This document shows, piece by piece, positions 134-56,839 of a DNA stretch of 64,000 nt. Positions within the stretch are counted from its first letter, which is position 1. Each line of letters begins with the position of its first letter. The DNA is from an uncultured Armatimonadia bacterium (lineage in GTDB: Bacteria > Armatimonadota > Zipacnadia > Zipacnadales > UBA5352): assembly GCA_964484945.1 (NCBI GenBank), contig CAZAHB010000002.1:16-64015 (forward strand). Direction: 5' to 3'. The notes below the pieces were generated by a model. The model ran no database searches and was not told the DNA's origin. It was given only the letters and a program-made list of their open reading frames with translations. Position numbers and translations under genes: made by a program.

Positions 134-169
134 GTGATAGTACCAATCCTTTAACCTTGATACGGACCC
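134..169. repeat. Terminal-motif fragment of dispersed GC-rich palindromic repeat family 1
   Basis: The segment ...gtgatagtaccaatcctttaaccttgatacggaccc matches the conserved right end (cttgatacggaccc) of the copies at 11062, 37338, 46565 and 56731. Its interior differs, so it is a partial or variant copy. Confidence 0.35.
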
Positions 170-1607: not shown

Positions 1608-1916
1608 GTGATCGCTCCTGAGTGGACGGCACAGGATGGTCGTAGCGGCGAGGATATTTCGACGCGGATGAACGGGGGCCTTCGTAACGTCGTTTGGCCC
1701 GGCCGTTGGTCGTCACGTCGTCTGTCGTACGACCGTCTGCAGGACGGGCTTCCAGCCCGTCGCCGTTTGTCGTGTCGGCCGCCTCAACGGCACGATGATG
1801 ACAGCACTGACGGGCAGGATGCTCGTCCTGCAAACGACAGTCGAGCGGGGTCCGACTCGATCTTGTAGGTAGATGCCGACGACAACCTCCCCCACCCTCG
1901 CACACGACGCTCGGGC

Positions 1917-2097
1917 ACCCCCTCCCTGGTCCCGCCTAAACGGCAGGCGGGACTGGCGGGAGGGGGAGGCAGTTCTCGTAATCTATGGACCGCTACGCAT
2001 CGCCTCTGCGCTCACAGTTGTGCGCACCCCCTCTCCCGCCTGAAACCGCGTCGTTTGCGGTTTCCAGGGAGAGGGGGCTGGGGGGGGTGAGGCCGCC
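1917..2097. repeat. Compound copy of GC-rich palindromic repeat family 1, two partial units in opposite orientation
   Basis: It contains cccctccctggtcccgcctaaacggcaggcgggactggcgggagggggagg, the same inner hairpin as the copy at 46565. It also contains cccctctcccgcctgaaaccgcgtcgtttgcggtttccagggagaggggg, which is a reverse-complement variant of the core of the copy at 31457. Confidence 0.5.
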
Positions 2098-11061: not shown

Positions 11062-11243
11062 GGGTCTGTATCAACGATTAGGGGTTACGTTCACAGCGCG
11101 CGTTTGTCGTTCTCCCCCTCGTCCCGCCGGCGATGTCGTCTATCGCAATGGGAGAGGGGGGGAAGCGATGTCGTTTATCGCAGGCGGTGAGGCCCGGCCT
11201 GCCGACGCGTTGTGGGTCAACCCTTAGATTCTGATACGCACCC
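11062..11243. repeat. GC-rich palindromic repeat family 1, full-length copy in reverse orientation
   Basis: Its reverse complement aligns end to end with the copy at 37338..37528: gggtgcgtatcagaatcta...ggccgggcctcacc...cgatagacgacatcgc...gggcgggacgaggggg...ttgatacagaccc. Confidence 0.7.
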
Positions 11244-15574: not shown

Positions 15575-15735
15575 TCGGTTCCCGGGAGAGGACTCTCCGC
15601 CCCAACAGTGAACTATGACTTACGGCTGTGGGCGTTACAGCGACCGCATTCTTTCGGTCCCGTCTATGGCGTGTACGAATCCCATTCGATGCCGGCCCGA
15701 TGGCCGATGGGTCTAACAATCTGAGGGGATTTGAC

Positions 15736-19371: not shown

Positions 19372-19455
19372 CCCCTAATTCTCAGTGAAGGTATTCTTCC
19401 CGGGCCAAAGGAAAAGTGTACAAACGCTCGACACGTCTCACAGGAGGTGTGTCCA

Positions 19456-20124
19456 ATGAAGCGAGGCTTCACCCTGATTGAGCTGCTCGTGGTGATTGCG
19501 ATCATCGCCATCCTGGCGGCGATCCTCTTCCCGGTCTTCGCAAGAGCGCGCGAGAAGGCCCGTCAAAGTTCATGTCTCAGCAACCTCAAGCAAATTGGCC
19601 TGGCGGGCCAGATGTACGCGCAGGACTACGATGAGACATTCAACCCCAGCGACCAGCATTGCGACCCGCCCAACTACGTCTGGAGCCAGCTTATCTACCC
19701 CTACGTCAAGAACGATCAGATCTTCATCTGCCCCAGCTTTGGCGGAGTACACACGTCCACCTGTGGCGCTGCCCACACCAAGCCCAGTTCATACGTGCAC
19801 GGCGGCTATGCCATCAACGCCTGGCGTGAGGTCGGCCAGGGTGGCACGACCACATACGGTCCCGGCCACGGCACCGGCCAGAAGCTGGCCGACATCGAAA
19901 CTCCTGCCGAGATCGTTTACGCCTGTGATCAGAGTACGGGAAGTGATGCGAGCAACTGCTTCCGTATCTCCGTTATGCGCCAGATGGTCGGTGGAAGTCT
20001 CTACGAGAACAATCAGAAGTACGCCGTCTCGTCGCGGCACAACGACGGCTTTAACGCGACCTTCTGCGATGGCCACGGCAAGTGGCTCAAGGAGCCCCTG
20101 CCGAAGTACTTCGGCGGCTCGTAA
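19456..20124 (+). CDS. Prepilin-type N-terminal cleavage/methylation domain protein (DUF1559)
   Basis: N-terminus [37 protein letters not shown]. The C-terminal [13 protein letters not shown] is H-X9-DG. The RBS caggaggtg precedes the ATG. Confidence 0.85.
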
Positions 20125-20269: not shown

Positions 20270-21532
20270 TCACTCCGTTCCGTACGCCCGCGCGATCGCG
20301 CCCTGTGGGTCGAACATCTCCTCGATCGGCCCAAGCTGTTTCTCAAGCTCACACGGCGGCTCGTAGCGCTCGAGGTCCTCGCCATTGCACAGGCCCCGCG
20401 CAAGCTCCACGAAGTACAGGAAGTTGCGCAGCGGAATGTCCGGCGGCACACCGTGGTCACAGTGCGGGATGTAGCGCCCATGCTCCCACGCGGTGCGGTA
20501 GCGCGTGGCCACCTCCACGCGCAGGTCCGCCCGGGATTTCGCAAGCTCGCGCTTGTCCACACCCCCGTGTATGAACAGGTCCGGCCAGCGCCGCCGCATC
20601 TCTTCGGGGTCATTGCCCGCCGCGATCTCGATCGGCTGAATGCCGTCGATCGTGTCCGGATACATCACGTCCAGGATCTGGTAGTTGAAGCCATCCGAGT
20701 CCATCACGACCGCCTCGACGCCGCGCTCCTTGAAGAACTCATACAGCTTCAGGTAGCGCGGATACAAAAACTCCTCCATCAGCGGCGGACTCATCATCGA
20801 CTGGCCCTTGAAAGCCATGTCCTCGTTCAGTATCAACTCATCGACTTTGATGTGCCGCAGCGGCTCGTCGAGAAGCTCCATCAGCATCCACGCCCAGTGC
20901 TCGAACATATCATGCACCAGGTCGGGCTTGTCGTAGAACATCACAGACAGGCCCTCCATCCCCGTGTAATCGCGGATACCCCAGTAGATCCCGGCGATGC
21001 TCAGGCGAACGGGGACGTCGGAGTTATTGCACGCTTCGATGTTGTCGCCCCAGTACGAGCCACCCGGCCGGTGGCGGCCGTAGCTGTCCGGGCCCATGCT
21101 GTCGGGGGCTTCGTGAGGCTCCAGCGGGCGCGTGCGTTCCGGCGAGTGCGGATCCAGCCGCTCCTTCACGCGCTTCCAGTCGTCCCAGTCCTTCACAGCG
21201 AAGTCGAGCCATCTGCGTGTCGCGAAGCCCTCGGTCGGCTGTTCGATGGCATCCTGGCGCGTGGCGCCCCATCCATCGACCCAGGTGCGCACATTGCCTT
21301 CCTCTTTGATCAGCTTCTCTTCGAACAGCGGATGTACGCCCGTGTAGAACTTCCCCACCCCGCGGAAGCCATCGCTCCCGGTCAGCTCACCCCACCTGCG
21401 GCGCTGCTCTTCGCTGAGCCCCTGCCTGCGCCATGCGGCGAATGTTGAGGCCCGCGGGCCCCCAAAGATGTACGGCAGTCGGTCTACCTCTTCCCCGTGG
21501 ATCACGCGGCGAAAGCGCTCTCGCTGCGTCAT
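20270..21532 (-). CDS. URO-D superfamily protein, long paralogue (segmental duplicate of 342..1607)
   Basis: A 420-aa protein colinear with the 342..1607 product along its whole length ([25 protein letters not shown]...[15 protein letters not shown]...). The 3' flanks are also similar at DNA level. Confidence 0.55.
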
Positions 21533-24537: not shown

Positions 24538-24628
24538 TGGGCCCCCGCCTTTCTGCGTCGGGTCGCCCGCGCGCGTGCCAGCGAGCGAAGTCATCTCGTA
24601 GCAACTACCAACTGAGAGCGTTATACCT

Positions 24629-25081
24629 TCAATGCACCGGTCCTTCGCCGGCGCTTTCGTCCTCGAGGTCCTCCAACTCCTCATCCACGTCGATCTCCTC
24701 TGCTTCCTCCGCGTCCTTGCGCGGGATCGCGCGGTCGAGCGCCTCCTTTGCCTTCTCCACCATCGAGCAGGCGCGATCGAACGGGCCCGATACGGTGAGC
24801 AGGCGCTCTCCGTCATCATCAACTACCAAAAACACCGGTGTCATTGTCACTCCACCACCACCACCGCCACCGGATCCTGTCTCCCGCTCTCCGCTCTCGG
24901 TATCTGAAGGGGCGCTGCCTCCTCCACCTCCAGCGCCGAATCCCATGCGCGTCACGACCGCCGGAATTATGACCTTGCCACCCACTTCCACCGGCTCACC
25001 GATCACCTCCAGTGAGTCGCTCAGCGTGGCCAGGCCGCTCACGATATCCTTCATGAATCCGCCGACATCGAAGTCTCCCAT
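24629..25081 (-). CDS. GerW/YtfJ-family sporulation-associated protein
   Basis: IGEPVEVGGKVIIPAVVTRMGFGAGGGGG...GGGGGGGVTMTPVFLVVDDDGERLL reproduces the YtfJ/GerW pattern. That pattern is the IGEPIEV.G.TIIP block, then Gly-runs, then V.P.a.lVi..dG.v. Confidence 0.6.
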   Translation of the reverse strand: MGDFDVGGFMKDIVSGLATLSDSLEVIGEPVEVGGKVIIPAVVTRMGFGAGGGGGSAPSDTESGERETGSGGGGGGGVTMTPVFLVVDDDGERLLTVSGPFDRACSMVEKAKEALDRAIPRKDAEEAEEIDVDEELEDLEDESAGEGPVH

Positions 25082-25947
25082 CAGTCTTTGTCCTCCTCGC
25101 GCGATGACTGCTCTTCTTCCATCTTCTCTATCAGGCGCCGGTCCTCATCCGAGGCACCACTCGCCTGCTCACGCGCCTTCTGCTGGCGGATGAATTCGCG
25201 GATGCGTCCATCCACCATTACCTGCACACCGGCGAGCGCGGCCCGCAACAAACCAATTCGATACAATGCCCGCACCCGTCGCGACTCCTCCCCTGCAAAC
25301 AACGTCACGTCAACGGGCCCCACCTGTCGCCGCCCGAATACTTCCTGAATGACTGAATCGACGGCCGCTCGCTCCGCCGGACTCTCGACGATGACACGTA
25401 TCTCCTCTGCCGCCCATATTAGCTCACAACTCGCCCCCAGGCCGCTCCCGATCAGGCGACAGAATGCTTCCACTGTTTCCGAATCGATCCCCCGCCAGGT
25501 TGGCGCGAGTTCCTTTGGCTCCTCCCGTCTCTCTTCAACGTCTCCTCCGGTATCCTCCACCGGCGGGATCTCTTCAATTTCGGCCTTTTCCGTCTTCTTC
25601 GGTTCTTCCGTTTCCTCTCGCTCTTGCTCCCCGCGCGCGGCCTTCTTCCTGAGCGTCCGACGAATGGGGATCCCGAGGATTCGGATAACCGCTCGAGTCG
25701 TCGTATCACCTGTAACGAATGAAACCTTCCCCCACCAGCCAATGCGCACCACCCCCCTGGGGCCCTCGCTGTCGAAGACCATCCTCAACTCACCCGGCCA
25801 GGGAAGCACAAGCAGCAGTAACATGATGCCGCTGCACAAAAGCCCCCACGGCACTCCTCCAAAGACGTAGAATCCCAGCGCGAAAGCGCCTGCCAGAAGC
25901 GCCTCGATAATCAATACGCCCACACTGACCGCACACGCCATGCGCAT
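25081..25947 (-). CDS. DUF2953-like membrane protein (YtfI-like), upstream partner of YtfJ
   Basis: Two N-terminal TM helices and a charged Glu/Lys-rich linker. The position immediately upstream and co-directional with the YtfJ homologue matches the ytfI-ytfJ pair of Bacillus. The sequence-level assignment is tentative. Confidence 0.45.
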   Translation of the reverse strand: MRMACAVSVGVLIIEALLAGAFALGFYVFGGVPWGLLCSGIMLLLLVLPWPGELRMVFDSEGPRGVVRIGWWGKVSFVTGDTTTRAVIRILGIPIRRTLRKKAARGEQEREETEEPKKTEKAEIEEIPPVEDTGGDVEERREEPKELAPTWRGIDSETVEAFCRLIGSGLGASCELIWAAEEIRVIVESPAERAAVDSVIQEVFGRRQVGPVDVTLFAGEESRRVRALYRIGLLRAALAGVQVMVDGRIREFIRQQKAREQASGASDEDRRLIEKMEEEQSSREEDKD

Positions 25948-26069
25948 GATGAGTGAATGCCTCCCGCGACGGCTCGAGGACTGGCATCAATGTTCGACTC
26001 CGCGCGCCCATATCCCTACTTTTCCGGACAAATCGTGATACCAGAAGGATTTACGCAGCAACACAGCGA

Positions 26070-26140
26070 ATTCGGGGAATGATTCCGAACTTGGGAGGAT
26101 TCTCCGGAATCGTGCGGAATCATCTCCAGACACTCGCGCG
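26070..26140. repeat. Cluster of GGAATC/GATTCC palindromic motifs upstream of the excisionase-like gene
   Basis: gggaatgattccgaac...ggattctccggaatcgtgcggaatcatc carries three or four GGAAT(C) half-sites arranged as inverted repeats. Confidence 0.3.
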
Positions 26141-26254
26141 AAACAACGCATCGAAGGTCAGTCCACATCAATGCGTTGCGATGACAGCATACGAAATCTA
26201 ACGCACGGGCCGACATACACCGCGTCGGCCTTGCGATAATTCGGTTTTCAGGGA

Positions 26255-26464
26255 GTGTATACCATGGCCGTTGAAACTGATGTGATGACACTCGACGAGG
26301 CCGCCGCGTACCTGCGCGTGCATCCTCGCACACTGCGCATGAAGGCCAGCGAAGGGAAAATCCCCGGGGCGAAAATAGGACGCGTCTGGCGCTTCCACCG
26401 ACAGCAGCTTGAGACGTGGCTGCTGCAGGGCGGTGTGCGCTCAACCGCGGATGCCGCCGATTGA
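26255..26464 (+). CDS. Excisionase-family (MerR-like) helix-turn-helix DNA-binding protein
   Basis: MTLDEAAAYLRVHPRTLRMKASEGKIPGAKIGRVWRFHRQQLETWL matches the excisionase-type HTH_17 pattern (l.v.eaA.yLgvs..T...l...G.ip..kiGr.wrf....l..wl). Confidence 0.55.
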   Translation: MYTMAVETDVMTLDEAAAYLRVHPRTLRMKASEGKIPGAKIGRVWRFHRQQLETWLLQGGVRSTADAAD

Positions 26465-26632
26465 GCGGCGCCCTGCGAGGCAGTGGCAATGCGCCTTTGT
26501 ACGAAGATCAATTAATTCGACTGATCGACCGTCCGGTGGGGAACTGCACTGAGTTGTGACGGCTTCCTCCAGCAGGAGCGCTCAGAACTGGCGCCCGACG
26601 AGGATTGGCCCAGGAGGCAGGACACTTTCGGA

Positions 26633-27697
26633 ATGCCCGACTTTCAAGCTGATGCTGACAATGATATCGACCGAGAACCTCTCGTCCAGTACGAGGATCT
26701 CGAACAGGCCACCGGCTTCACTCAGGTAAGCAACGCCGTACTGCGCTGCTACCCGGAGTTGTCCGATGGCGAGAAGATGACGTACGCGGTCCTTAAGAGC
26801 TTCGCATACGTGGGGCCGGAAACATTTGTGGGCCAGGAGACTCTGGCGCGCGCTCGCGGGATCACTGTGTCCACCATCTCCCGTCATCTGACGCGCTTGA
26901 TTGAAGTGGGCCTGGTGAAAGTCCGCCGACGCGGACAGGGTAAAACGAACATCTGGATCATCACCCGCATCCCGCGTAAGAAGCTCGAGCAATATATCAA
27001 TGACTGGCGCCCGAAACTGAGCGCGAAGCCGCAATCTGAGAATCCGCAAACCCAGACTTCGCAGAATCCGCAAGTCAGCAATTTGCAGAATCCGCAAACC
27101 AAGAACCGGCAGGATCCGCAAGCAGAAGAACAAGAACGTCTAGAAGACGAAGATAAGCCTCAGGGGCGGAGCAGCCGCCCGCTGAACGGATCGTCTTCGA
27201 TGGGGGATAACCTCTCACCTGCGGCCCTCACTGCCGAGGATACCCCTCCGGACTCTGTACTGGAGGGCGTTGTGGAAAACTGGGATGGCATAAAAGGCAA
27301 GTTATCCACATCAGGGGAAACTGTGGAAAACCTCGCTGCGATCGCCGCTGAGTGTTTCGCAGTGCCCGAGGAAGAGCCGAACATCGCCGGCTATTTACGG
27401 CAATACGATAAAGAGATTGTGAAGTCGGCGCTTGCAACCGTCGTGCAACGTCTCAACCGCGGCCAATCCATTCGGAATCCCGTCGCTTACTTCTATACCG
27501 TTGTGCGGGTCGCGCAGGCCGAGAACGATGCCGCTCAGGCGGACGAGAAGCGCGACGAGAATGAAAAGCAGGTCATCGCCTGCAACTGGGCCCGCAGCCT
27601 CCTGCGCGAGTGGCCCGCAGATCAGGTGCGAGCCATTCTGATGGACACGTACCATTCGGACGAGTTCGTAGATACAGTGATGGATCAACTGGACTGA
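26633..27697 (+). CDS. Replication-initiator/replisome-organizer-like protein with N-terminal winged HTH and internal NPQ repeat linker
   Basis: LSDGEKMTYAVLKSFAYVGPETFVGQETLARARGITVSTISRHLTRLIEVGLVKVRRRGQGKTNIW is the phage/plasmid Rep-type HTH. The C-terminal NPVAYFYTVV resembles the DnaD-like C-terminus. The middle region is encoded by an about 24-nt tandem DNA repeat. Confidence 0.45.
   Translation: MPDFQADADNDIDREPLVQYEDLEQATGFTQVSNAVLRCYPELSDGEKMTYAVLKSFAYVGPETFVGQETLARARGITVSTISRHLTRLIEVGLVKVRRRGQGKTNIWIITRIPRKKLEQYINDWRPKLSAKPQSENPQTQTSQNPQVSNLQNPQTKNRQDPQAEEQERLEDEDKPQGRSSRPLNGSSSMGDNLSPAALTAEDTPPDSVLEGVVENWDGIKGKLSTSGETVENLAAIAAECFAVPEEEPNIAGYLRQYDKEIVKSALATVVQRLNRGQSIRNPVAYFYTVVRVAQAENDAAQADEKRDENEKQVIACNWARSLLREWPADQVRAILMDTYHSDEFVDTVMDQLD
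27040..27125 (+). repeat. About 4 tandem copies of GCAGAATCCGCAA (period 22-26 nt) inside the Rep-like gene
   Basis: gagaatccgcaaacccagacttcgcagaatccgcaagtcagcaatttgcagaatccgcaaaccaagaaccggcaggatccgcaagcag. It encodes ENPQTQTSQNPQVSNLQNPQTKNRQDPQ. Confidence 0.7.
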
Positions 27698-27722
27698 GAC
27701 ACGTGGAGGAGCTGTTCAGGGG

Positions 27723-28136
27723 ATGACTATCGGAAAACGTTTGCGCAGGGCACGTCGTGAGACGGGCCTCACAGACGATCAGCTTGCCGAGGAACTGGGG
27801 GTGGAAGTCAGCACACTGCGCGCCTGGGAGCTTGAAGTCGAAACACCATCCGACGAGCAGCTTCAGCGCCTCGCTGAACTGGTCAACATGGATGGCGAGA
27901 CTCTCTCCCACCTTGCTGCCAGCCCCGCCCCCCAGGGCATCTGCAGTGCCGTGGATCTCGTCCCCGATCGCTCACAGGCGGAGGCTCTTGAACAGGTTGG
28001 CCTCCCTCCCGAGCTGTGGGACGATCCGGATCGCTGGGTCGCGTTTCTGCGCCTCGCAGCCGCGGCGGCCGATCTCTCCCCGGATGAGATCTCGCGCCTT
28101 GCCCGCGAGGCCGAGACGTGTGTCGTGGGGGACTAA
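27723..28136 (+). CDS. XRE-family helix-turn-helix transcriptional regulator
   Basis: MTIGKRLRRARRETGLTDDQLAEELGVEVSTLRAWE is a Cro/C1 HTH. Confidence 0.55.
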   Translation: MTIGKRLRRARRETGLTDDQLAEELGVEVSTLRAWELEVETPSDEQLQRLAELVNMDGETLSHLAASPAPQGICSAVDLVPDRSQAEALEQVGLPPELWDDPDRWVAFLRLAAAAADLSPDEISRLAREAETCVVGD

Positions 28137-28143
28137 TGTAGAA

Positions 28144-28232
28144 CTATACAGCCTCAAACCTATACAGCTAGAAGGGCCACAGCCCGTGAAGGTAAAGGTT
28201 TAGCCGCGAAACTTATACAGGGCTATACACAG
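28144..28232 (+). repeat. Four direct repeats of (A)AC(C/T)TATACAG (iteron-like), with a fifth copy at 28877
   Basis: ctatacag at 28144 and 28160, cttatacag at 28212, ctatacacag at 28223, and aagctatacag at 28877. The first four are just downstream of the XRE and Rep-like genes. The fifth lies on the far side of the rhodanese gene. Confidence 0.6.
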
Positions 28233-31129: not shown

Positions 31130-31456
31130 CGATCGTGGGCCTCCCTGAATCGCAACGCGACCGCTCGGGCCATGCCGAACGCTCGCTGGAGTTTTGCGTG
31201 ATGGCGAGAGGCAGTTCGACGGGGAGCGCGGGGGGACCTGCCGGGTGGGAGGATGGCGGTGGAGCGGGGGAACCTTAAACTTATGTGACAGGCGAAAATT
31301 CATGCGCAAAGGAGAGCGCTCCGGTTTGTATATGAATAGAGGGCGACGGAAACGGCGCGGCAGCAGCGGGCGGCGCGTGGAGGGATTTCCCTTACTCTGC
31401 GTCGGCGGAACGCGCCGTGGGCTCGGTGCCTCATCCTCGGGAGGAAAGGCAACAGC

Positions 31457-31550
31457 GGCCCCACCCCCCTGCGATAGACGACATCGCTTTCCCCCCTCCC
31501 CCTGGACGCCGCAAACGGCGCGGCGTCAGGCGGGAGAGGGGGGCAACGGC
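31457..31550. repeat. GC-rich palindromic repeat family 1, core-only copy
   Basis: ggccccacccccctgcgatagacgacatcgctttcccccctccccctggacgccgcaaacggcgcggcgtcaggcgggagaggggggcaacgg shares the cgatagacgacatcgc and ccctcccc...ggggagg palindromes with other copies. Confidence 0.6.
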
Positions 31551-31584
31551 CAGGGGCGGCCGGGGGGCGGGATGTCGTTGCCCA

Positions 31585-31652
31585 GCCGTTTGGAGGGCCA
31601 AACCCCGCCGCAGGCGTGGGTCGCTACGTCCCCGCCCGCGGGCTACGCTTCC
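31585..31652. repeat. Repeat family 2 (gccgtttggag...ggctacg.ccccgccc), copy 1
   Basis: gccgtttggagggccaaaccccgccgcaggcgtgggtcgctacgtccccgcccgcgggctacgc parallels 52063..52100, gccgtttggagagagcggggctacgaccccgcccgg. Confidence 0.45.
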
Positions 31653-31740
31653 CCGTCGGCTTCACCCTCCCCACCCTCACCCAACTCGCGCCGCATCTGC
31701 TGTATCTGCGCGAGGAGTTCGACCGCGGCGGCGAGGTTGG

Positions 31741-31889
31741 CGGCTGCCGGGCCTCACCCCCCTCGGTCCCCCCTCTCCCTGCTTCCTGACGCTGCAAACG
31801 GCGCAGCGTCAGGCGGGACGAGGGGGGAGGAACGGCCACTGCGTACTGCAAGAGGGAGGATCGCTATACCGGACTCGTGATACGGAGCC
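31741..31889. repeat. GC-rich palindromic repeat family 1, copy with variant right end (gtgatacggagcc)
   Basis: cggctgccgggcctcacccccc...ctgacgctgcaaacggcgcagcgtcaggcgggacgaggggggaggaacggccactgcgtactgcaagaggga...gtgatacggagcc. It lies in tandem with the copy at 31457, separated by the family-2 repeat. Confidence 0.65.
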
Positions 31890-31968
31890 ACGGAAGGCCC
31901 TCTCCCCCACGTCGCGAATAATCACCCGTCGCCCAAACTTTCGTTCAAACACAAAGGGGATAGTTCTC

Positions 31969-34374
31969 ATGCGTCGCTTTATTGCTGCCGCGTGCATAAT
32001 CGCCATCACCGCCACTGTCGCCACCGCCGATAGCTGGCTCCAGCAGGGCTTCGAAGATCCCGGTTCACTGGAGAACTGGGAGGTCGATGACAGTCAGGGA
32101 TGGGCGCGTGTGAGGAGCCTCGACGGCCCCCAGCGCCTCGTGGAGACATTCAACAGCCGCGAGTACAGCACCATCCGCGTGTACGTGCGGCTGCATCGCG
32201 CTACGGGCACCGTGTGGTTTGACAGAGTCGATATCGACTCGCTTGACATAGAGAACTCCGACTTCTCGGAACACGAGGGCGACCGAATCGCCGGTTGGGG
32301 ACAGGACGACGTCGGTGAGACGATCTTCTGGGATGACGAAAAGCTCGGGGCTGGAAGCGTGCGGATATCGCGCACGGATGCAGACGGGATGAGCCGCGTG
32401 TATCAGAACGTCAAGTGCGAGCCTCAAACGGAGTACACCCTCGAGGTCTGGGCCGCCAGCGAAAACCTCCACGGCTCGGCGTACGCCGAGGTCTACGGTG
32501 TCGCCGATGACGGACTGGGAAGCCAACTCGGCTCCACGCAGAATGTGCGCCCTCCTGACGCCACCCTCGGTCAGCGGGCGCTGGCACTGCATCCGCGAGA
32601 GGGCCCGGTGGCTGTGAGCCAGACGGTGGACCCGCGCGGCGACCGCCTCGCGACACTCTCGGTTGAGGTCAACACAGACGCGATGGAGCAGGGCGCGATT
32701 ACGCTCGCGGTGGCGGACGCAAACACCGGCGCGCTGCTCGCCCAAAAGACGCGCGAGGTCGATCCCCTGGCGCGACAGTTCGTGCCCATGCGGCTCGGGT
32801 TCTGCTCACCGGCCCACAGTGCGGCGCAGGTGCGGGTCTCGGTGGCCGGTGACGGGACCGCGCTGCTCGACAACATCACGGTTGGCGATGTCGAGCTTCC
32901 GATACCTCCGCAGAAGATGGACCTGGGCACACTCGCGGATGGCTGTGCGGTGGGCGTGGTCTCGAGCGAGATCGATGACCCGGTGCTTGCGAACGCGGCC
33001 GCGCTTTTCGAGGAAGGGTTGACCACCCGCGCGCCTGATCCGGTGGAGATCGCCGTCACCGGTGGCGCTGTGCAGTGGCCCGACACGGAGCGCTATGAAC
33101 TCGTCGCCGACGCCGATGGCGCGCGCATCACCGCGCCGACCGCGACAGGCGCGGCATACGGCCTGATGACGCTGCTGGACCTCGCGGAAGCCGGCGATGG
33201 ACGCGTCCCTGCCTGCAAGATCGAGGACTGGCCCGCGATGCCCTTCCGCGGCACCTACCGCGGCGGCGTGCCGGGCGGCGATGCCCTCCAGGACTTCTGC
33301 CGACAGTTGATGCGCCTGAAGATGAACGCGGTGGTGATGGAGAGCGGTGTCTGGTACAGCCTTGACGACGAGGATGTCCGGAAGAAGACGCGAGCGTCCT
33401 TCGAGACCCTTCGTGCCTGGGGGATCGAGCCGATTCCCGAGCTTCAGAGCCTCGGGCACGCCTCGCCGCAGCTTTCGCGCAATCCACACGCCGTCGAGGG
33501 CGCCTGGCAGCAGGACGAGGAGCTTACGCTGACCGGGACCGAGCCTGTCGCGCTGGAGCACAACAATTTGCTGCGCACGGAAGCAACCGACATCGTCATC
33601 ACCAGCGAGGACGGGGAGACCACGTTCGTCGAGGGCGAGGACTACGAGATCATCGACGGGGTGACGGACTTTCCCTACAGGCGGGACGCCGAGCCGTATC
33701 GGATCCAGCGCATCGAGGGCGGCGCGATCGCCGATGGCGCGACGGTCCTGGCCTCGTACGATCACGCGGTGAAGATGGGCAGCCGCAATGTCCCCTACTG
33801 TCCGTCGGAGCCTGCGGTGTACGATATCCTGTTCCCCGCCATCGAGGATATCATCACATATCTGGAGCCGAAGACGTTGCACATCGGCCACGATGAGCCG
33901 CGGATCGTCAACTCCGACAGCCGCTGCCTCAAGCGCGACATGACCGGCGGGGAGCTTCTGGCAGAGGATATCACGAAGCTCAACGACTTCGCGCACTCCG
34001 TGGACGGGGACGTCACGCTGATGATGTGGGCCGATGCGCTGAACCCCTATCACAACGGGACGTGGTTCAGCGGCGAGGATGAGCACCAGCTTGACCTCGT
34101 CCCGAAAGACGTGGTGCAGAACATCTGGTTCTACGGCCCGAAGCAGCCGCTCTCACACGGTCGCGACAGCTTCGAGCACTTCCAGCGCTACGGCTTCACC
34201 TTCACCGGCTCCCCGTGGGATGACACCACCTGCTGCCGCAACTGGGGGATCGTGGCCGGAGAGGCGCGGCGTAAGGGCATGAACTGCCCTGGTTTGCTCT
34301 ACACAAGCTGGAGCGGCCGCTGGGCGGGCCTTGAGACGATGGCGTCCGTGGCCTGGAACCCGCCGCGGGAATGA
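31969..34374 (+). CDS. Secreted glycoside hydrolase family 20-like protein (beta-N-acetylhexosaminidase-like) with N-terminal CBM-like module
   Basis: Signal peptide MRRFIAAACIIAITATVATA. The RBS aaagggga precedes the ATG at 31969. ACKIEDWPAMPFRGTYRG matches the start of the GH20 catalytic domain (I.D.PRF.YRG). The ORF-track start at 31417 runs through repeats and is rejected. Confidence 0.55.
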   Translation: MRRFIAAACIIAITATVATADSWLQQGFEDPGSLENWEVDDSQGWARVRSLDGPQRLVETFNSREYSTIRVYVRLHRATGTVWFDRVDIDSLDIENSDFSEHEGDRIAGWGQDDVGETIFWDDEKLGAGSVRISRTDADGMSRVYQNVKCEPQTEYTLEVWAASENLHGSAYAEVYGVADDGLGSQLGSTQNVRPPDATLGQRALALHPREGPVAVSQTVDPRGDRLATLSVEVNTDAMEQGAITLAVADANTGALLAQKTREVDPLARQFVPMRLGFCSPAHSAAQVRVSVAGDGTALLDNITVGDVELPIPPQKMDLGTLADGCAVGVVSSEIDDPVLANAAALFEEGLTTRAPDPVEIAVTGGAVQWPDTERYELVADADGARITAPTATGAAYGLMTLLDLAEAGDGRVPACKIEDWPAMPFRGTYRGGVPGGDALQDFCRQLMRLKMNAVVMESGVWYSLDDEDVRKKTRASFETLRAWGIEPIPELQSLGHASPQLSRNPHAVEGAWQQDEELTLTGTEPVALEHNNLLRTEATDIVITSEDGETTFVEGEDYEIIDGVTDFPYRRDAEPYRIQRIEGGAIADGATVLASYDHAVKMGSRNVPYCPSEPAVYDILFPAIEDIITYLEPKTLHIGHDEPRIVNSDSRCLKRDMTGGELLAEDITKLNDFAHSVDGDVTLMMWADALNPYHNGTWFSGEDEHQLDLVPKDVVQNIWFYGPKQPLSHGRDSFEHFQRYGFTFTGSPWDDTTCCRNWGIVAGEARRKGMNCPGLLYTSWSGRWAGLETMASVAWNPPRE

Positions 34375-34487
34375 GGGGCGGATCGTATGGCGTTGTCGTG
34401 CGGCCCGGGAACGACCGGGCCAGCATCGCGCAGGTAAACGACAACGGCACAGGCTGGCACGGGGGCCAGCCTCTCCAACGACAAAGG

Positions 34488-35795
34488 ATGACAGCTATGC
34501 CAGAACCCGATGGCCCGCGCCCGAACATCATCCTCGCGATGACCGATGACCAGGGATGGGGGGATGCCGGTTTCAACGGCCACCCCGTGCTGCAGACCCC
34601 GCACCTTGACGAGATGGCCGAGGCGGGCCTGCGCTTCGATCGGTTCTACGCCGGCGCGCCGGTGTGCTCGCCAACGCGCGGAAGCTGTCTCACCGGCCGC
34701 CACCCGTGGCGCTACGGCATCCTTTTCGCCAACTTCGGCCCGCCCGACGAGCCCTCGAAGTATCCGCTGCCCATGCCCGAGGTGACGCTCGCCGAGGCAG
34801 TGAGCGATCTCGGCTACGAGTGCGGGCACTTCGGCAAGTGGCACCTCGGCGATTTCGAGGGGCCGATGAAGTCCGCACCCGACCAGAGTGGCTTCGACGA
34901 CTGGCTCTCCACCGTGCGGAAGGTCGCGACAGTTGATCCGGAGGGCTACTGGGATAACGGGGAGCCGGTCGCGGGGGCGCTGGAGGGCGATGATTCGCGC
35001 ATCATCATGGACCGGGCGCTGCGGTTCATCGAGGGCGCGGTCGATCGCGAGCACCCGTTCCTTGCGGTTATCTGGTTCCATACGCCCCACCTGCCGGTCT
35101 TCGCCACCGACCAGTTCCGCGCGCTTTACGAGGATCACCCCGAGCAGTGCCAGCACTACTGGGGCGCGCTGAGCGCGATGGACGCGCAGATGGGGCGCCT
35201 GCGGTCGGCGCTGCGGGAGATGGGCGTGGCGGATGACACGATCCTGTGGTTCTGCTCGGACAACGGGCCCGAGGGCGACGCGCAGACCGAGGAGCGCCCG
35301 GGCTCCGCGGGTGACTTCCGGGGGCGCAAGCGCAGCCTCTGGGAGGGCGGTATCCGCGTCCCCGCGATCCTCGAGTGGCCGGAGCGCGTCACCGAGCCTT
35401 GCGCCACCGACCTGCCCTGCTGCACCTCCGACTTCTACCCGACGCTGATGGATGTGCTCGGCTATGAGCCGCCGAAGCAGCCCCGCCCGATCGACGGTGT
35501 GAGCCTGGTGGATCTGATCGATGGCGACATGCAGGGCCGGCCCATGGCGATGGCTTTCGAGACGCTGGAGGGCACCACTCGGGGTTCACCGAGCACCGCG
35601 CTGATCGGGAATCGGCACAAGCTGCTGATGGACCCGGACGGCGAGCCGGTGCTGCTGCATGACCTGCTGGACGATCCGGCAGAGGAGCAGGACCTCTCCG
35701 CGGACCGCCCGGATGTGGTGGAGACTATGCGGGCGACGTTGCAGGGTGAGCGCGACTCGTGGGCGCGGTCAAGAGACGGGGAGGATTACCTCTGA
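34488..35795 (+). CDS. Cys-type sulfatase (formylglycine-dependent arylsulfatase family)
   Basis: The sulfatase signature CSPTRGSCLTGR (C-x-P-x-R) follows NIILAMTDDQGWGD. A GKWHLG block is also present. Confidence 0.85.
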   Translation: MTAMPEPDGPRPNIILAMTDDQGWGDAGFNGHPVLQTPHLDEMAEAGLRFDRFYAGAPVCSPTRGSCLTGRHPWRYGILFANFGPPDEPSKYPLPMPEVTLAEAVSDLGYECGHFGKWHLGDFEGPMKSAPDQSGFDDWLSTVRKVATVDPEGYWDNGEPVAGALEGDDSRIIMDRALRFIEGAVDREHPFLAVIWFHTPHLPVFATDQFRALYEDHPEQCQHYWGALSAMDAQMGRLRSALREMGVADDTILWFCSDNGPEGDAQTEERPGSAGDFRGRKRSLWEGGIRVPAILEWPERVTEPCATDLPCCTSDFYPTLMDVLGYEPPKQPRPIDGVSLVDLIDGDMQGRPMAMAFETLEGTTRGSPSTALIGNRHKLLMDPDGEPVLLHDLLDDPAEEQDLSADRPDVVETMRATLQGERDSWARSRDGEDYL

Positions 35796-35810
35796 ACGGG
35801 TCCCCGCCCC

Positions 35811-37241
35811 CTACCCCAACTCCTCGCGCGCCCGGTCCACGATCACGCGCATCTGTGCAAGTTGCTCCTCGCGGCCTTCGGGCTTCTCGTACGCATCCAG
35901 CAGCGCGTCCACGCGGTCCGCGGTCTCTGCGAGGAGCGCCTCCTCGCGATCGAAGCCCGCGTAGCCCGAGCGGTCGATCAGGTCCGGCAGCCACACGCTG
36001 TCGCGGAAGCGCTTCGCGGTGTGCATCGTCTCCAGGTGGCTCTCCCCTATTCCCAACCCCACCTGCAGGATCTCATCCAGCGCAAGGTTCTCCGGACTCG
36101 GGTCGAATGTGCGCGTCAGGTGCGCGCTGCCCGAGGCGAACTCGCGGTCCAGCAGAAGCTGCACCGCCGAGAGCTTCTTGCCCTCATCGACCATCCCGCC
36201 CCCCGATGACAGCGACTGTCCGGTGAAGGCCGTCACCACCGCCGACTTGTACGCCTTCTCCAGCGCCGCGTACAGGCCCGGGACCCTGGCGTCACAGTAC
36301 TCGCCCGAGCCCATCGGGATGGTCATCCCGCACCAGCGGCGGATGAACTCCACGCACGCGAAGCCGTAGTAGAGCGCATCCCAGGCGGCGTAACTGACCG
36401 CCCCGGTGCCCATGTCCACCGTGCCCGGCCACATACTGCCCCGCAGGGGGACCTCCGGGTTCACGCCGCGAGCGGCCATCCACGTGGCCACGAATTCTGC
36501 GGTCGAGACCGCGACGAAGCCCTCGGCCGTCACCGGGGTCGAGACACCCGCGACCGGCATCGCCGTCAGCCCGCAGGGCTCACCGGCCTTCGCGCGGAGG
36601 ACGTACTTCCCGGCGAGGTCGCGGTCCATGCGCAGCGGATGGGCGAAGCACACCGCGCCCCACGCGAACCAGTCCTCCAGCCCCAGCACCTCCCCCATCT
36701 CGCGCAGCCACGGGATCTGATCGGCATGCCACGCGAAGGGACCGTGCGGCCTGTGGGCGTACTCCGCCAGCAAGAGGCCCGCCTCCAGCGGCTCGAGCAT
36801 CGGCGGCACATCCGTCAGCGACAGCGCATGCCCGACACCGCGCTCGCGGTGCAGGGCGTCGCCGAACTTGATGAGGGTGGTCAGGTCGTCGCGGTTGGCC
36901 TGGCGCTCCTCGCCCGTGCGGTGGTCCTCGTAAAGCTGCGCGACCTGCGTGCCGACCACCGGCAGCGAGGGAGCGCCGAGAGTCATTCGGTCCTCCGCGG
37001 CACCTGCGGGGCGGGCTTGCGGCCCGCCATGCTCTTCGCGAACGCCTTCCATGAACTCCGCGGTCAACTCGCGCGGGAAGTAGACGCGCTCGTCGGGGTA
37101 GCTGACCTCTGCGCCCATCGCCTCCATCCCCCGCATGAGTTCCTCGTTCTGACACAGCGCCCCGACCTCTTCGAGAATGGTCAGGACCGCGTCGGCCAGT
37201 GGCTCGATGTGCTCGTCCCTGATGATCGCGCGCTGGAACAT
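35811..37241 (-). CDS. MttB-superfamily (trimethylamine methyltransferase family, non-pyrrolysine) methyltransferase
   Basis: The N-terminus IRDEHIEPLADAVLTILEEVGALCQNEELMRGMEAMGAEVSYPDERVYFPRELTAEFM matches the MttB-family N-terminal block. That block is lseeqlerIh.asl.iLeevGv.v.....lell...Ga.vd..rvrfp..lve. The protein is about 476 aa, with no in-frame TAG. The start is set at MFQRA (37241). Confidence 0.65.
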   Translation of the reverse strand: MFQRAIIRDEHIEPLADAVLTILEEVGALCQNEELMRGMEAMGAEVSYPDERVYFPRELTAEFMEGVREEHGGPQARPAGAAEDRMTLGAPSLPVVGTQVAQLYEDHRTGEERQANRDDLTTLIKFGDALHRERGVGHALSLTDVPPMLEPLEAGLLLAEYAHRPHGPFAWHADQIPWLREMGEVLGLEDWFAWGAVCFAHPLRMDRDLAGKYVLRAKAGEPCGLTAMPVAGVSTPVTAEGFVAVSTAEFVATWMAARGVNPEVPLRGSMWPGTVDMGTGAVSYAAWDALYYGFACVEFIRRWCGMTIPMGSGEYCDARVPGLYAALEKAYKSAVVTAFTGQSLSSGGGMVDEGKKLSAVQLLLDREFASGSAHLTRTFDPSPENLALDEILQVGLGIGESHLETMHTAKRFRDSVWLPDLIDRSGYAGFDREEALLAETADRVDALLDAYEKPEGREEQLAQMRVIVDRAREELG

Positions 37242-37337
37242 GGCAGATGCCTCCCGTCTGGAGTCGTGGTTGGAATGAGGTTCACCCTTCGGGAGGAAAT
37301 CCCCTTTTATCCTGGCGCCCGCTACACATTGCAAGGA

Positions 37338-37528
37338 GCGTATCAGAATCTAATGGGTTGACCCACAACGCGTCGGCAGGCCGGGCCTCACCCCCCTGCG
37401 ATAAACGACATCGCTTCCCCCCCTCTCCCTGGCGATAGACGACATCGCGGGCGGGACGAGGGGGGAGGAACGGTAACTGCGTACCGCAAGAGGGAAGTAT
37501 CGCCATCCATAACTCTTAATACGGACCC
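37338..37528. repeat. GC-rich palindromic repeat family 1, full-length reference copy (about 190 bp)
   Basis: gcgtatcagaatctaatgggttgacccacaacgcgtcggcaggccgggcctcacccccctgcgataaacgacatcgcttccccccctctccctggcgatagacgacatcgcgggcgggacgaggggggaggaacggtaactgcgtaccgcaagagggaagtatcgccatccataactcttaatacggaccc. The ends are imperfect inverted repeats (GCGTATCAGAA / TTAATACGGACCC). Confidence 0.7.
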
Positions 37529-37601
37529 ACATTGCAAGGACCCGCCCCTGCTTCTATCGAACCTCCCATCACCACCGACCAGGCCGCCTGGAGGCTGTCC
37601 C

Positions 37602-39527
37602 ATGAAGCGCACGCTCATCGCTGTCATCGCGGTCGCGCTGCTCTCCCCCACTCTCGCCGGCGCGCAGGATTTCGACACTCATCCGCGCGTTATCGCCGGC
37701 TACACCGGCGCGTTCCTCGGCGACGAGGACGAGCGCTGGCGGGACTATCTGCCGCTGCTGGCCGAGCACGGCTTCACCGCCGTGGACTTGAAGCTCCATC
37801 CGAAGAACTTCCCGCTCGACGATGATGCCGCGATGCGCGAGTTCGTCCACGAGGTAGCGAATTCCGTCGATGAGGCGGGACTGGACTTCTACGTGTATCT
37901 GTATGACCGCGGCGCCAAGCGCGATCCGGAAAGCGACGCTCACCTCCCCGCGTTCATGGCAAAGGATGGGTCGGTCAACCCGAACATGTACTGTCTCTAC
38001 TCGCCGGAGGTCTGGCTTGCGCTTTTCGAGCGCGTCTTCTGGATGGCCGAGCGTTCCAACGAGGTTCCCATCGCGGGCGTGAAGATCGACATCGAGCACC
38101 TGCAGAATTACCGGCCATGTGTGTGCGATTCGTGCTTCTACGGCTTCGCGCGGGAGTGTACCGTGGATGAGGGCCTGGTGATCGACTGGGACCGGGAGAC
38201 GGTCGCGCCCGACCACCGCTGGGCGTGGATCGCCGAGCACGGTGGCGAGGAGGCATACATGGCCTACCTCGAATCGCGCGTGGACGAGGCCGCGAAGCAG
38301 TACGAGGCCCGCGCGCATGCGATCAACCCCGACCTGCAACTGGGCATGATGCCGGTCCGCGACTCACACCTGCACCGCCCCTGGATGACGCACCTGGCCA
38401 CCGAGCGCGCGCCGGCGATCAACGACTCGTGGGCGATGTACGGAGGCCTCGGCTGGAGGGACGCGGTCGCCGAGGTCCAGCGGTTCGTGAAATCCCTCAA
38501 CCCGCACAACCGTTTCGTGCCATGGTTCCGGCCGAATAACTACCGGCCCGAGGACATGGGCCGGCACGCCTTCGTCGCGGCGGTGCAGGCGGATGGGTAC
38601 AACCTGTGGCAGCTCAATATGCTCCACCCCGACCAGCCGCGCTCGCACGTCGCGGCGTACTCGCTCCCGACCGATTACGAGGACCCGATGGCGTACTGGG
38701 AGGCGCTGGGCGAGGCGAACGTGCGGGTGAGCGAGTGGCTGGGCGATCCGCATGAGATCGAGTACGAGCCGATCGAGATGCTGGTGGAGCGCGCGGACAC
38801 CGGGGGCGTGAGCATCCCGGACCTGCAGCCGATGTGGGAGGGGCCGTCCTCGATGCAGGAACCGCGACTTGCGACCGGCCTGCGCGGGGTCAACACGATC
38901 TACATCCATGTGAGCGACCCGGCGGAGCCGATTCGGGCGCTGATCCGTCACGTGGCGGGCGACCGGCGGCCGAAGCCGATCGCGTGGGCGCTGGCGGAGG
39001 GCCCCGACCGGCCAATCGCGGAGGGGCGGGTGGAGCCGGGCGAGACCGTGGACCTGTCGCTGGAGGTGGAGCGAGCGGGGGTGTACGCGCTGGTGATCCA
39101 GGCGCAGGAGGGCGGCGGCCCGTGGTATTCGGTGCGGGTACCCTCACATCCTTACGGAATCGACGCCTCCGGTGAGGCCTACTACTTCCGGCGCAGCCCG
39201 AAGCAGTACGTCTGGGTGCCGGAGGGCCTCGAGAGCTTTCGGGTCCGCGCGGAGACCGGCGGCCACAATCAGGAGATGCGGGTGCAGGTCTGGCGGCCCG
39301 ATGGTGAGCGCACCCTCGACCATGTGGTGAACTCGGATGTGGCGCACCGGGAGACGCTGGAGGTGGCGGTGCCGGAGGGCATGTCGGGTGCGGTGTGGTC
39401 GCTGAAGGTCGGCGCACCGGAGGAGGTCGCGCCCACGCACTACTCGGAGAACTACTGGGTGCGGGTGATGGACGCCGAGCCGTGGCTGGCGGCGCGGCCG
39501 GGGGCGGTGCTGGGGCGGGAACGCTGA
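37602..39527 (+). CDS. Secreted hypothetical protein (glycoside-hydrolase-like TIM-barrel suspected)
   Basis: Signal peptide MKRTLIAVIAVALLSPTLAGAQD. A 641-aa protein with no motif I can name confidently. Confidence 0.45.
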   Translation: MKRTLIAVIAVALLSPTLAGAQDFDTHPRVIAGYTGAFLGDEDERWRDYLPLLAEHGFTAVDLKLHPKNFPLDDDAAMREFVHEVANSVDEAGLDFYVYLYDRGAKRDPESDAHLPAFMAKDGSVNPNMYCLYSPEVWLALFERVFWMAERSNEVPIAGVKIDIEHLQNYRPCVCDSCFYGFARECTVDEGLVIDWDRETVAPDHRWAWIAEHGGEEAYMAYLESRVDEAAKQYEARAHAINPDLQLGMMPVRDSHLHRPWMTHLATERAPAINDSWAMYGGLGWRDAVAEVQRFVKSLNPHNRFVPWFRPNNYRPEDMGRHAFVAAVQADGYNLWQLNMLHPDQPRSHVAAYSLPTDYEDPMAYWEALGEANVRVSEWLGDPHEIEYEPIEMLVERADTGGVSIPDLQPMWEGPSSMQEPRLATGLRGVNTIYIHVSDPAEPIRALIRHVAGDRRPKPIAWALAEGPDRPIAEGRVEPGETVDLSLEVERAGVYALVIQAQEGGGPWYSVRVPSHPYGIDASGEAYYFRRSPKQYVWVPEGLESFRVRAETGGHNQEMRVQVWRPDGERTLDHVVNSDVAHRETLEVAVPEGMSGAVWSLKVGAPEEVAPTHYSENYWVRVMDAEPWLAARPGAVLGRER

Positions 39528-40043
39528 TGTTCGTGCGCTCATCTGGCACCAGCAGACGCCGGACCGGAAAAAGCAATGGCGGACAGCATAGCAGGATGGA
39601 CAGGATGAACAGGAGAGGACGATGGCGGCCGCATCTGGGCCTGCCGGGCGGGATACGTCTTTGCGGACGGTAAGGGCAGCGGTCTCACGCGCGCGGCGCC
39701 CTCAATCCCGAGGCGGAAGCGGGCTCCAATCGGCGGCAGGTGTGGTCGAACAAATGTTTCACGTGAAACATTGACCGATAACGCATTATACCGTTTTGCC
39801 AGCAAAAGGGCCCCGTGGTCGATAACGGTATTCCCAGGCAGTACGCCATATTCCAGAGATCGGGAGCGAGGCAAGCTCAGACGACGGGGAAAGAGTTTCT
39901 GGTGTCCACGTCCAGCCAGGTCGCCGAAGGTCCATTGGCGTCAGCGGTGTGGGGCCGCCGCAGTCCCGCCACCGGGTGGGAAAGCAGTTGCGCGTGGGCG
40001 GTCGTGCAGGCTCCGCCCAGGGCTCCACGCCGACCCGCAGGCC

Positions 40044-46159: not shown

Positions 46160-46560
46160 TCGACGCCATCTTAGCAGCATAGCGTCATGCCGTCAAACAG
46201 CTTCCCTGTTATAGTTGTACAGCGTTATGCTGTCAGGCCATGAACGAAGTAAGGGGTTAAGACATTAAAACAGGGATCGGATGGGCCTGCGCATTATGCT
46301 GTTATAACATGGAAAGACGGCGTATAGCAGCAGAAAGACGCGTCATGGCATATGGCGCGATTTAGAGGAATAATGTTTTAACAGCATAAGTGCACGATGG
46401 CGAATGGTCGGGCTGAGAACCGCACCTGCTGGCAAGAGTAGAAAACGAGAAAACAGCAAAACGGTAGAACCCGATAACAGTACAACAGCAGAAGCTTAAA
46501 AGGCAAAAACGAGGGCTCGTTAGAGAGGGATAAGCCGGGCGGTGGCGGAGTAGAAGGGAT
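46160..46560. repeat. AT-rich region with iterated ACAGCAT/ATGCTGT-containing repeats (candidate centromere-like/iteron site) upstream of parA
   Basis: GC content is markedly lower than the surroundings. The motifs are ttagcagcatagcgtcatgcc, cgttatgctgtcagg, cattatgctgttataacatgg, tagcagcagaaagacgcgtcatggc and ttttaacagcataagtg. Confidence 0.5.
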
Positions 46561-46564
46561 GGAG

Positions 46565-46769
46565 GGTTTGTATCAAAAGTCTAATGATTGTCTTCTGCCG
46601 TGCTGCGGCTGCCGGGCCTCACCCCCCTGCGATAAACGACATCGCTTTCCCCCCTCTCCCTTGTCCCGCCGAAACGGCAGGCGGGACTGGCGGGACGAGG
46701 GGGGAGGAACGACAACTGCGTCCCTGCAACAGGGAATTATCGCTATCCTTAACTCTTGATACGGACCCC
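46565..46769. repeat. GC-rich palindromic repeat family 1, full-length copy with cccgccgaaacggcaggcggg inner hairpin
   Basis: gggtttgtatcaaaagtctaatg...gctgccgggcctcacccccctgcgataaacgacatcgc...cccgccgaaacggcaggcggg...gggacgaggggggaggaacgacaactgcgtccctgcaacagggaattatcgctatccttaactcttgatacggaccc. Confidence 0.7.
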
Positions 46770-46817
46770 GGGGATGGAGGCGGCATTGGGGCGCGAGTGG
46801 AAGAATGGAGTGCACGA

Positions 46818-52009: not shown

Positions 52010-52110
52010 GCCGTTGTCGTTGGAGAGGCCGGCCCCCGTGCCGGCCTGTGCCGTTCGTCGTCGAGCCGTTTGGAGAGAGCGGGGCTACGACCCCGCCCGG
52101 CCGCTGTCCC
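52010..52110. repeat. Repeat family 2, tandem/degenerate copy
   Basis: gccgttgtcgttggagaggccggcccccgtgccggcctgtgccgttcgtcgtcgagccgtttggagagagcggggctacgaccccgcccgg. Confidence 0.4.
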
Positions 52111-53946: not shown

Positions 53947-54119
53947 GGCTTCCGGAGCGCTCCTTCGTCATGCCCATAACGGATGGAACGGGAGTGGGCA
54001 ATCGGCAATTGGGAATTACGGCAAATGCATACGACACGGCGACGGGCAGGATGCCCGTCCTGCAAACGGCTGCATCGGAAGCAACAGCGGCAACGAAATG
54101 CCGGCGATCGCCGGGCTCT

Positions 54120-56691: not shown

Positions 56692-56730
56692 CAGGTCGGG
56701 AAGGGGACCCTGAAAAGGCAACGACGACGG

Positions 56731-56839
56731 CGCCCCTCCCCTGCGATAGACGACATCGCTGGCGGGACGAGGGGGGAGGAACGGCAACTGCGTACTGCAA
56801 GAGGGAATTATCGCTACTATTGACTTTTGATACGGACCC
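56731..56839. repeat. GC-rich palindromic repeat family 1, 5'-truncated copy
   Basis: cgcccctcccctgcgatagacgacatcgctggcgggacgaggggggaggaacggcaactgcgtactgcaagagggaattatcgctactattgacttttgatacggaccc. Confidence 0.65.

Follow-up and report, generated by a model that had tools for sequence, protein, structure and literature searches.

A MITE-like intergenic repeat with a REP-like palindromic core in an Armatimonadota genome fragment

Introduction

What is the GC-rich palindromic repeat that recurs between the genes of this DNA, and how did it come to be there? The whole stretch analyzed here, 64 kb in length, is called the window. Its G+C content of 63.5% is Armatimonadota-like, and the database proteins nearest to its genes, at 66-80% identity, are labeled Armatimonadota. 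The window encodes DUF1559/N-methyl pilin-like paralogues, GH20b-, GH123-, and heparinase-like enzymes, a sulfatase, hisD, and ParA. A preliminary description of the sequence had recognized one dispersed family of repeats with inverted termini, placed it in most large intergenic regions, and called it MITE/REP-like.

The best explanation, with a probability of about 0.7, is that the repeats are non-autonomous mobile selfish DNA in two nested layers, a MITE that carries a REP/BIME-like palindrome. So read, they are a new family of ordinary selfish intergenic DNA and no new class of system. The MITE/REP-like character first proposed is borne out by the termini, the flanking repeats, the absence of the element from orthologous sites, and the occurrence of its core in at least seven other MAGs. 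The idea of a single family stands in that the repeat is real; it gives way in that two nested elements are present, a REP-like core in a MITE shell.

Repeat Copies in the Window

A BLASTN search of the window with the copy at 37338-37528 returns 11108-11239 (minus strand), 46611-46768, 56733-56839, 31812-31886, and 31457-31505, and an independent repeat search gives the same common blocks. Both searches recover the copies of the preliminary description in both orientations, and sequence inspection and an alignment of the copies agree with its order of blocks. The copies are 84-94% identical to one another and have different flanks. A covariance model of the core finds eight core copies in the 64 kb, again in both orientations. 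Every repeat copy lies between genes in a GC3-based gene map combined with Pfam scans of the window, as had been claimed. The reach of the family had been overstated, since, by map reading, it is present in about 7 of the roughly 16 intergenic regions that measure at least 200 bp, which is about half and not most of them. The copies are as follows, with each core placed by the covariance model.

37338..37527, plus strand: complete composite (MITE-like) focal copy, 190 bp, delimited by the limits of similarity with the inverted ends aligned
37325..37337: left copy of the 13-bp flanking direct repeat CACATTGCAAGGA, target-site-duplication-like, matching 37528-37540 exactly (13/13)
37528..37540: right copy of the 13-bp flanking direct repeat CACATTGCAAGGA
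37385..37477, plus strand: REP-like core of the focal copy (cmsearch, 73.2 bits)
46566..46770, plus strand: complete composite copy, 205 bp, core at 46616-46716 (plus)
46556-46565 and 46771-46780: 10-bp direct repeat GGGATGGAGG around the 46566 copy (null P = 0.0006)
11063..11242, minus strand: complete composite copy, reversed, core at 11103-11193 (minus)
11052-11062 and 11243-11253: degenerate flanking repeat of the 11063 copy, 9/11 by eye count
31740..31889, plus strand: composite copy without the left terminus, core at 31751-31839 (plus)
56718..56839, plus strand: composite copy without the left terminus, reduced to one hairpin, core at 56718-56788 (plus; cmsearch, 36.6 bits)
136..169, plus strand: fragment, right terminus alone (repeat search, motif, and alignment)
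31458..31553, plus strand: core-only copy with two hairpins, without terminal inverted repeats (cmsearch, 50.2 bits)
1885..1978, plus strand: simple core (CCCCCTCCC, hairpin, GGGAGGGGG; cmsearch, 23.6 bits)
2014..2093, minus strand: simple core in the opposite orientation (cmsearch, 56.2 bits)

The window thus holds three complete and three truncated composite copies per 64 kb. For the focal copy, the left limit of the preliminary description is retained and the right limit moves from 37528 to 37527. The reversed copy at 11063 is 94% identical to it across 136 nt by BLASTN. The right-end motif CTYTTGATACGGACCC occurs eight times in the window at no more than three mismatches, against 0.59 occurrences expected. 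Seven of the eight are element termini, 154-169 among them; the eighth, 16910-16925, lies inside the ORF 15628-19371 and is part of no copy. The simple cores at 1885 and 2014 form an inverted pair within one intergenic region, a BIME-like cluster. This cluster adjoins a MazF/PemK toxin gene and a small antitoxin-like ORF upstream of it, at 2098-2813.

The family also leaves traces in gene calls, where it yields false N-terminal extensions and spurious ORFs. The peptide DKRHRFPPSP, noted earlier in several spurious ORFs, is a direct translation of GATAAACGACATCGCTTyCCCCCCTCTCCC, that is, of the first hairpin and the second C-rich arm. The false N-terminal extension suspected upstream of 31969 is likewise confirmed, because an identical 801-aa NCBI protein supports 31969 as the true start.

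The Outer Unit

Four complete composite copies are available in all, three in the window and one in another MAG (locus L016). When the seven composite copies are aligned, similarity begins at GCGTATCA and ends at ATACGGACC, which delimits an outer unit of about 190 bp; complete copies measure 180-205 bp. All four complete copies have the inverted termini that had been described, imperfect repeats of about 20-24 nt that read GGGTsCGTATCAAR and onward and are of the GGGTCCGTATCAAGAG type. In the 46566 copy, 19 of 24 terminal positions are complementary, and the predicted fold of the whole copy is a rod in which the termini pair (z = -4.5). The complete copies are non-coding, because hairpin modules of differing length break any reading frame.

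Repeats that resemble target-site duplications, for which the preliminary description had advised looking, flank the complete copies. Exact direct repeats of 13, 10, and 14 bp surround three of the four, and the 14-bp repeat of the L016 copy (14/14 exact) is TCCGGTGAGGGGCG. Random flank pairs match as well in 0 of 5000 trials for the 13-bp repeat and in 3 of 5000 for the 10-bp repeat. For the fourth copy, at 11063, the longest exact run in the flanks is 6, which by comparison with random flank pairs is not significant by itself. Each copy has its own repeat sequence, and RRGG stands at the end of all the duplicated targets. Core-only copies show no evident flanking duplications in the flanks inspected.

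Sites without the element exist in related genomes. Orthologues of the gene at 37602 share 76-80% protein identity and a conserved gene order, and neither their upstream regions nor the orthologous ParA/DUF3604 spacer contains the element. With 37338-37540 removed, which takes out the element and one flanking repeat, the window is colinear with the orthologous upstream regions of loci L021 and L020, including the conserved blocks GCAAGG and TCGAAC. These relatives are 20-25% diverged at the protein level, and the comparison describes an insertion/deletion difference and not a witnessed insertion.

Four of six MITE criteria describe what is found: the unit is small (below about 500 bp) and non-coding, it has terminal inverted repeats, it has flanking duplications, and it occurs in multiple dispersed copies. 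The outer layer would accordingly be named a MITE of about 190 bp, inserted by a cut-and-paste transposase, presumably of the DDE type, that is encoded elsewhere and acts in trans. Such a transposase would make a staggered cut of 10-14 bp, and insertion would duplicate 10-14 bp of target with a tendency to end in RRGG.

Three of the seven composite copies are without the same (left) end, and this one-sided loss is not predicted by a simple cut-and-paste history. The internal make-up of the composite copies also varies, with one or two hairpins and differing stems, which appears to point to hairpin modules that were recombined or replaced among copies. In the copy at 56718, the single hairpin is consistent with a deletion between the two GCGATARACGACATCGC hairpins.

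The cognate transposase, a further subject of the preliminary description, did not emerge from the ORFs searched. Pfam detects no transposase domain in about 50 window ORFs, and no transposase, Y1_Tnp included, is among the 25 families listed of 113 matched by 85 ORFs from other loci, a listing in which families matched once may be hidden. A BLASTN search of plasmids gives no match to the repeat, and viral contigs scanned with both arms give none. A metagenome scan with the composite-specific junction GGGAGGAACGRYMACTGCGT produced two matches only, both within unrelated coding-looking sequence, and was set aside.

The Inner Core

The core is 75-100 nt long and consists of a C-rich arm, an inner hairpin, and a G-rich arm that ends in AACGRC. 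In the focal copy, the order is a C-rich arm, the hairpin GCGAT-AAACGAC-ATCGC, a second C-rich arm, the hairpin GCGAT-AGACGAC-ATCGC, the G-rich arm, and AACGGT. The inner hairpin of the 31740 copy is CCTGACGCTGC-AAACGGC-GCAGCGTCAGG. Outside the window, the layout is GCCTCACCCCCC-(TCGRT or hairpin)-CCCCCCTCTCCC-TGG-[inner hairpin]-GGCGGGACGAGGGGGGAGG-AACGRC. At L019:3948-4003, a copy has both arms and no inner hairpin, which makes it either an "empty" form or a deletion derivative.

Both C-rich arms are complements of the G-rich arm. A triplex or mirror-repeat reading of the two was considered and rejected, because both are Watson-Crick complements of the G arm and not mirror repeats. Across 30 distinct copies, 98.3% of the outer helix is paired, with almost no variation, and the arms are too invariant to inform on covariation. 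The inner hairpin behaves differently. When the alignment is anchored on the loop, Watson-Crick pairing is seen in 113 of the 115 cells of its five inner pairs; shuffles give 51 on average and 73 at most. The 23 copies contain 17 distinct inner stems, with three or four pair types per position and one single G-T pair. The 7-nt loop ARACGRC is present with the same polarity in nearly all copies; among perfect hairpins of the window it is confined to this family, bar one overlapping case at 34402-34421.

The two strands of the core fold about equally, at -40 to -55 kcal/mol per core and with sums of -1108 and -1177 kcal/mol. No U-tract follows the hairpin on either strand, where the tails are GGAACGRC and GAGGCC, and no GTAG or CGTC tag stands at the core end. 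Scans for sigma-70 promoters and intrinsic terminators across 31300-38000 find nothing at the four of the eight copies that lie there.

Distribution and Position Relative to Genes

The preliminary description had named confinement to the window as an outcome that would tell against a dispersed family, and the core is found more widely. An exact 22-mer of the G-rich arm matches 19 stretches, none of which overlaps the window and which come from at least seven other MAGs; these MAGs are labeled Armatimonadota, Candidatus Zipacnadia, or "WS1". The core without terminal repeats is present in at least seven Armatimonadota MAGs outside the window, from the independent assemblies of several studies, and the composite form, with the core embedded in the longer unit, occurs in the window and in the L016 MAG. 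In about 100 kb of sequence from at least four related genomes, the covariance model gives no core match, compared with eight in the 64-kb window. The family is thus lineage-patchy, like mobile repeats. Several core copies stand at the ends of retrieved stretches or short contigs, and core copies probably break assemblies.

Of the 22 core copies outside the window, 15 are found within 4-26 nt of a stop codon, to one side or the other, and several occupy the entire spacer between convergent genes. Such 3'-end copies occur in either orientation. Their position agrees with the REP criterion of a downstream location near stop codons, and it is not seen for the composite copies of the window, most of which occupy divergent regions and stand 50-113 nt before a start codon. 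Of the six window intergenic regions that contain a composite copy (that at 136-169 included) or the simple-core pair, five are divergent, so that element orientation is uninformative there.

These positions fit an inner layer that would be a REP/BIME-like core of 75-100 nt, in which the C-rich and G-rich arms pair with each other and enclose a short hairpin. Such a core may also spread or persist alone in other Armatimonadota, where it would mostly fill short spacers after stop codons. Either strand can form a very stable stem-loop, and the core may influence RNA 3' ends, termination, or mRNA stability.

Tandem arrangements occur as well. At L014:1-382, the core and a short hairpin-bearing spacer form an array with a period of 166 nt. 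Another intergenic repeat, at L021:12200-12600, is a tandem duplication of roughly 170 nt.

Alternative Explanations

Near-invariant arms combined with full turnover of the inner stem across several species are unlike the neutral decay of a selfish repeat, and they hint at a sequence-specific constraint. It is conceivable, though unlikely, that the core is a functional structured element conserved across Armatimonadota, in which invariant C- and G-rich arms would present a hairpin and a dedicated protein would read its ARACGRC loop. Candidates for this protein are an undescribed HUH-type enzyme that acts on single-strand DNA and a factor for RNA 3' ends. Turnover of the stem would then represent modular hairpin replacement or specificity classes, not drift, and AACGRC would join GTAG and CGTC as a third type of REP "tag".

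A REPIN-type core, mobilized by a REP-associated tyrosine transposase (RAYT) or another HUH enzyme that acts on single-stranded hairpins, would make AACGRC the recognition or cleavage motif and the MITE shell secondary. Several features suit this doubtful account. The core consists of a long inverted repeat with a spacer inside and sits at gene 3' ends, it forms clusters and tandem arrays (window 1885-2093 and L014), it shares its regions with classical GTAG-tagged hairpins, and its perfect Watson-Crick stems suit recognition at the DNA level. AACGRC stands in the loop and straight after the G-rich arm, and flanks read by eye place it straight before the C-rich arm as well in about 6 of 20 copies. 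However, the core has no GTAG or CGTC tag, and a very limited search of the window ORFs and the listed other-locus families, over about 64 kb plus about 140 kb of loci, gives no Y1/HUH transposase. The composite copies also carry target-site-duplication-like repeats, which are not a product of HUH transposition.

The hexamer itself speaks less for a REPIN than its placement suggests. The density of AACGRC/GYCGTT is about 5 per kb in intergenic DNA and about 1 per kb in genes, and this roughly fivefold enrichment is shared by the window, the MAGs that have the family, and relatives that lack it (loci L001-L029). After stop codons the hexamer is often in sense orientation. Near hairpins it is present in 33% of cases, versus 23% at random intergenic sites, a 1.4-fold difference. 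AACGRC as a hairpin "tag" was a candidate weakened by these two observations, the enrichment in family-free relatives and the modest link to hairpins; it may be a host feature and is treated as a feature of the lineage, not of the element.

Cis-acting structured RNA is a further reading, in which the core, and perhaps the whole unit, would be a 5' leader, a riboswitch-like element, or an sRNA that regulates adjacent genes. The strong conservation of the arms, the covariation of the hairpin around a constant loop, and the orientation of the window composites, all of which point to a start codon 50-113 nt away where a downstream gene is identifiable, are what such an RNA would show. The orientation loses its force in divergent regions, which make up five of the six, and the downstream genes are unrelated (GH20-like, DUF3604, GH123-like, and unknowns). 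Orthologues of those genes in relatives do without the element, and the core elsewhere lies at 3' ends in either orientation. Both strands fold alike, the inner stems are essentially without G-U pairs, and flanking duplications and terminal inverted repeats are foreign to RNA genes. Rfam gives no match in the window at the gathering threshold, with a best sub-threshold score of 17 bits against a threshold of 64. With the unit also non-coding, the known structured RNA or conserved coding exon raised as an objection in the preliminary description is not what the searches found, and a regulatory RNA is considered quite improbable.

The chance is slimmer still that the stem-loops serve the lineage mainly as transcription terminators or 3'-end protectors and persist through selection, not mobility. 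Their great stability and the closeness of the non-window cores to stop codons, several of them between convergent genes, would be expected of terminators. Intrinsic terminators require the U-tract that is absent from both strands, most window copies occupy divergent, promoter-side regions, related genomes do without the elements, and the 3' regions of the window are occupied by other hairpins. Local segmental duplication or an assembly artefact, for which only the clustering in one window speaks, is negligible given the 84-94% identity, the different flanks, the two orientations, and the core in independent assemblies from several studies.

Mobile selfish DNA in two layers, the preferred explanation, adds a MITE and a REP-like family to a phylum in which a full-text literature search found none described, with no report tying Armatimonadota to REPs or MITEs. 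It is a clean case of one repeat carried inside another. The pairing of frozen arms with a freely covarying inner stem makes DNA or RNA recognition of such palindromes testable.

Other Features of the Window and Its Relatives

Two further palindromic families occur in the window. The second, about 45-66 nt long, is an AGGCYGGC hairpin flanked by AACGRC; its copies at 34443-34487, 52011-52055 (inverted), and 59852-59917 all lie just after gene 3' ends (3/3). The third resembles a classical GTAG-tagged REP and consists of GYCGTT-TGTAGG, a GACGGGC hairpin, and then GYCGTT. It is present in the window at 1733-1766, 1809-1836, and 54036-54069, in loci L002, L005, L012, and L026, and also in relatives without the main family. 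A perfect 20-bp palindrome, AATGTTTCACGTGAAACATT, is found at window 39753-39772, L020 about 11955-11980, and L021 about 11990-12015. It is conserved downstream of an orthologous gene in three genomes and looks like a conserved operator-type site.

The GC skew changes sign at about 26 kb, with 13 of 13 2-kb bins negative before this point and 15 of 19 positive after it. The lowest-GC bin of the window is 26-28 kb, and three DnaA-box-like 9-mers cluster at 27271-27330. Near the switch are an excisionase-like HTH ORF at 26255-26464, identified by eye, and an XRE regulator, and the HTH_36 ORF at 26633-27697 holds a 24-nt tandem repeat of 3.5 units (27039-27121). The region 24000-28200 may represent an origin of replication or else an integrated element.

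Paralogous genes account for other internal similarity. Four DUF1559/N-methyl (pilin-like) paralogues lie at 2880-3509 (minus), 19447-20124, 56086-56691, and 60998-61642; three of them have a common N-terminal DNA similarity of about 100-185 nt, and the fourth has it with two. Two URO-D-like paralogues, at 342-1607 and 20270-21532, are 81% alike over a 300-nt stretch, and a C-rich 7-nt tandem repeat follows each of them.

Comparison with Known Systems

REPs are often found no more than 20 bp from stop codons, between convergent or tandem genes (Di Nocera et al. 2013, PMC3733652). They are nested in larger conserved palindromes in A. variabilis GTAG-15, T. roseum GTAG-23, and H. neapolitanus CGTC-1, and their subfamilies differ by complementary stem changes (PMC3733652). 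Since nesting and stem-covarying subfamilies are both documented for REPs, neither is unprecedented here. Like REP/BIME sequences, the present core is an extragenic GC-rich palindrome that occurs in clusters and inverted dimers, with a hairpin inside a longer palindrome. It differs in its lack of a GTAG/CGTC tag, its 7-nt ARACGRC loop (2-5 nt in REPs), its unit of 75-100 nt (20-40 nt in REPs), and its near absence of G-T pairs. No RAYT is among the matches examined here, and the phylum is Armatimonadota.

REPINs are mobilized by RAYTs (PMC3337134; bioRxiv 10.1101/2022.05.22.493013). REPINs and the present core are alike in their two inverted arms and spacer, their long hairpin fold, and their persistence in particular lineages. 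The RAYT partner that defines REPINs and the REP tag were not found in the sequences searched here. The composite carries terminal inverted repeats and flanking duplications, which REPINs lack.

Bacterial MITEs include Correia/NEMIS in Neisseria, ERIC, RUP, and the modular BOX elements of Streptococcus pneumoniae. They are non-coding elements of 100-250 bp with terminal inverted repeats, flanking duplications, and a rod-like fold, and they lie between genes in both orientations. The present composite shares with them its size, its non-coding character, its terminal inverted repeats and flanking duplications, its rod fold, and its intergenic position. Its interior resembles BOX elements in being modular, with sub-units that vary in number and type. 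The sequences are unrelated to those of Correia/NEMIS, ERIC, RUP, and BOX, and the flanking duplication is a variable 10-14 bp where that of Correia is TA. Unlike those MITEs, the composite carries in its interior an independently distributed REP-like element.
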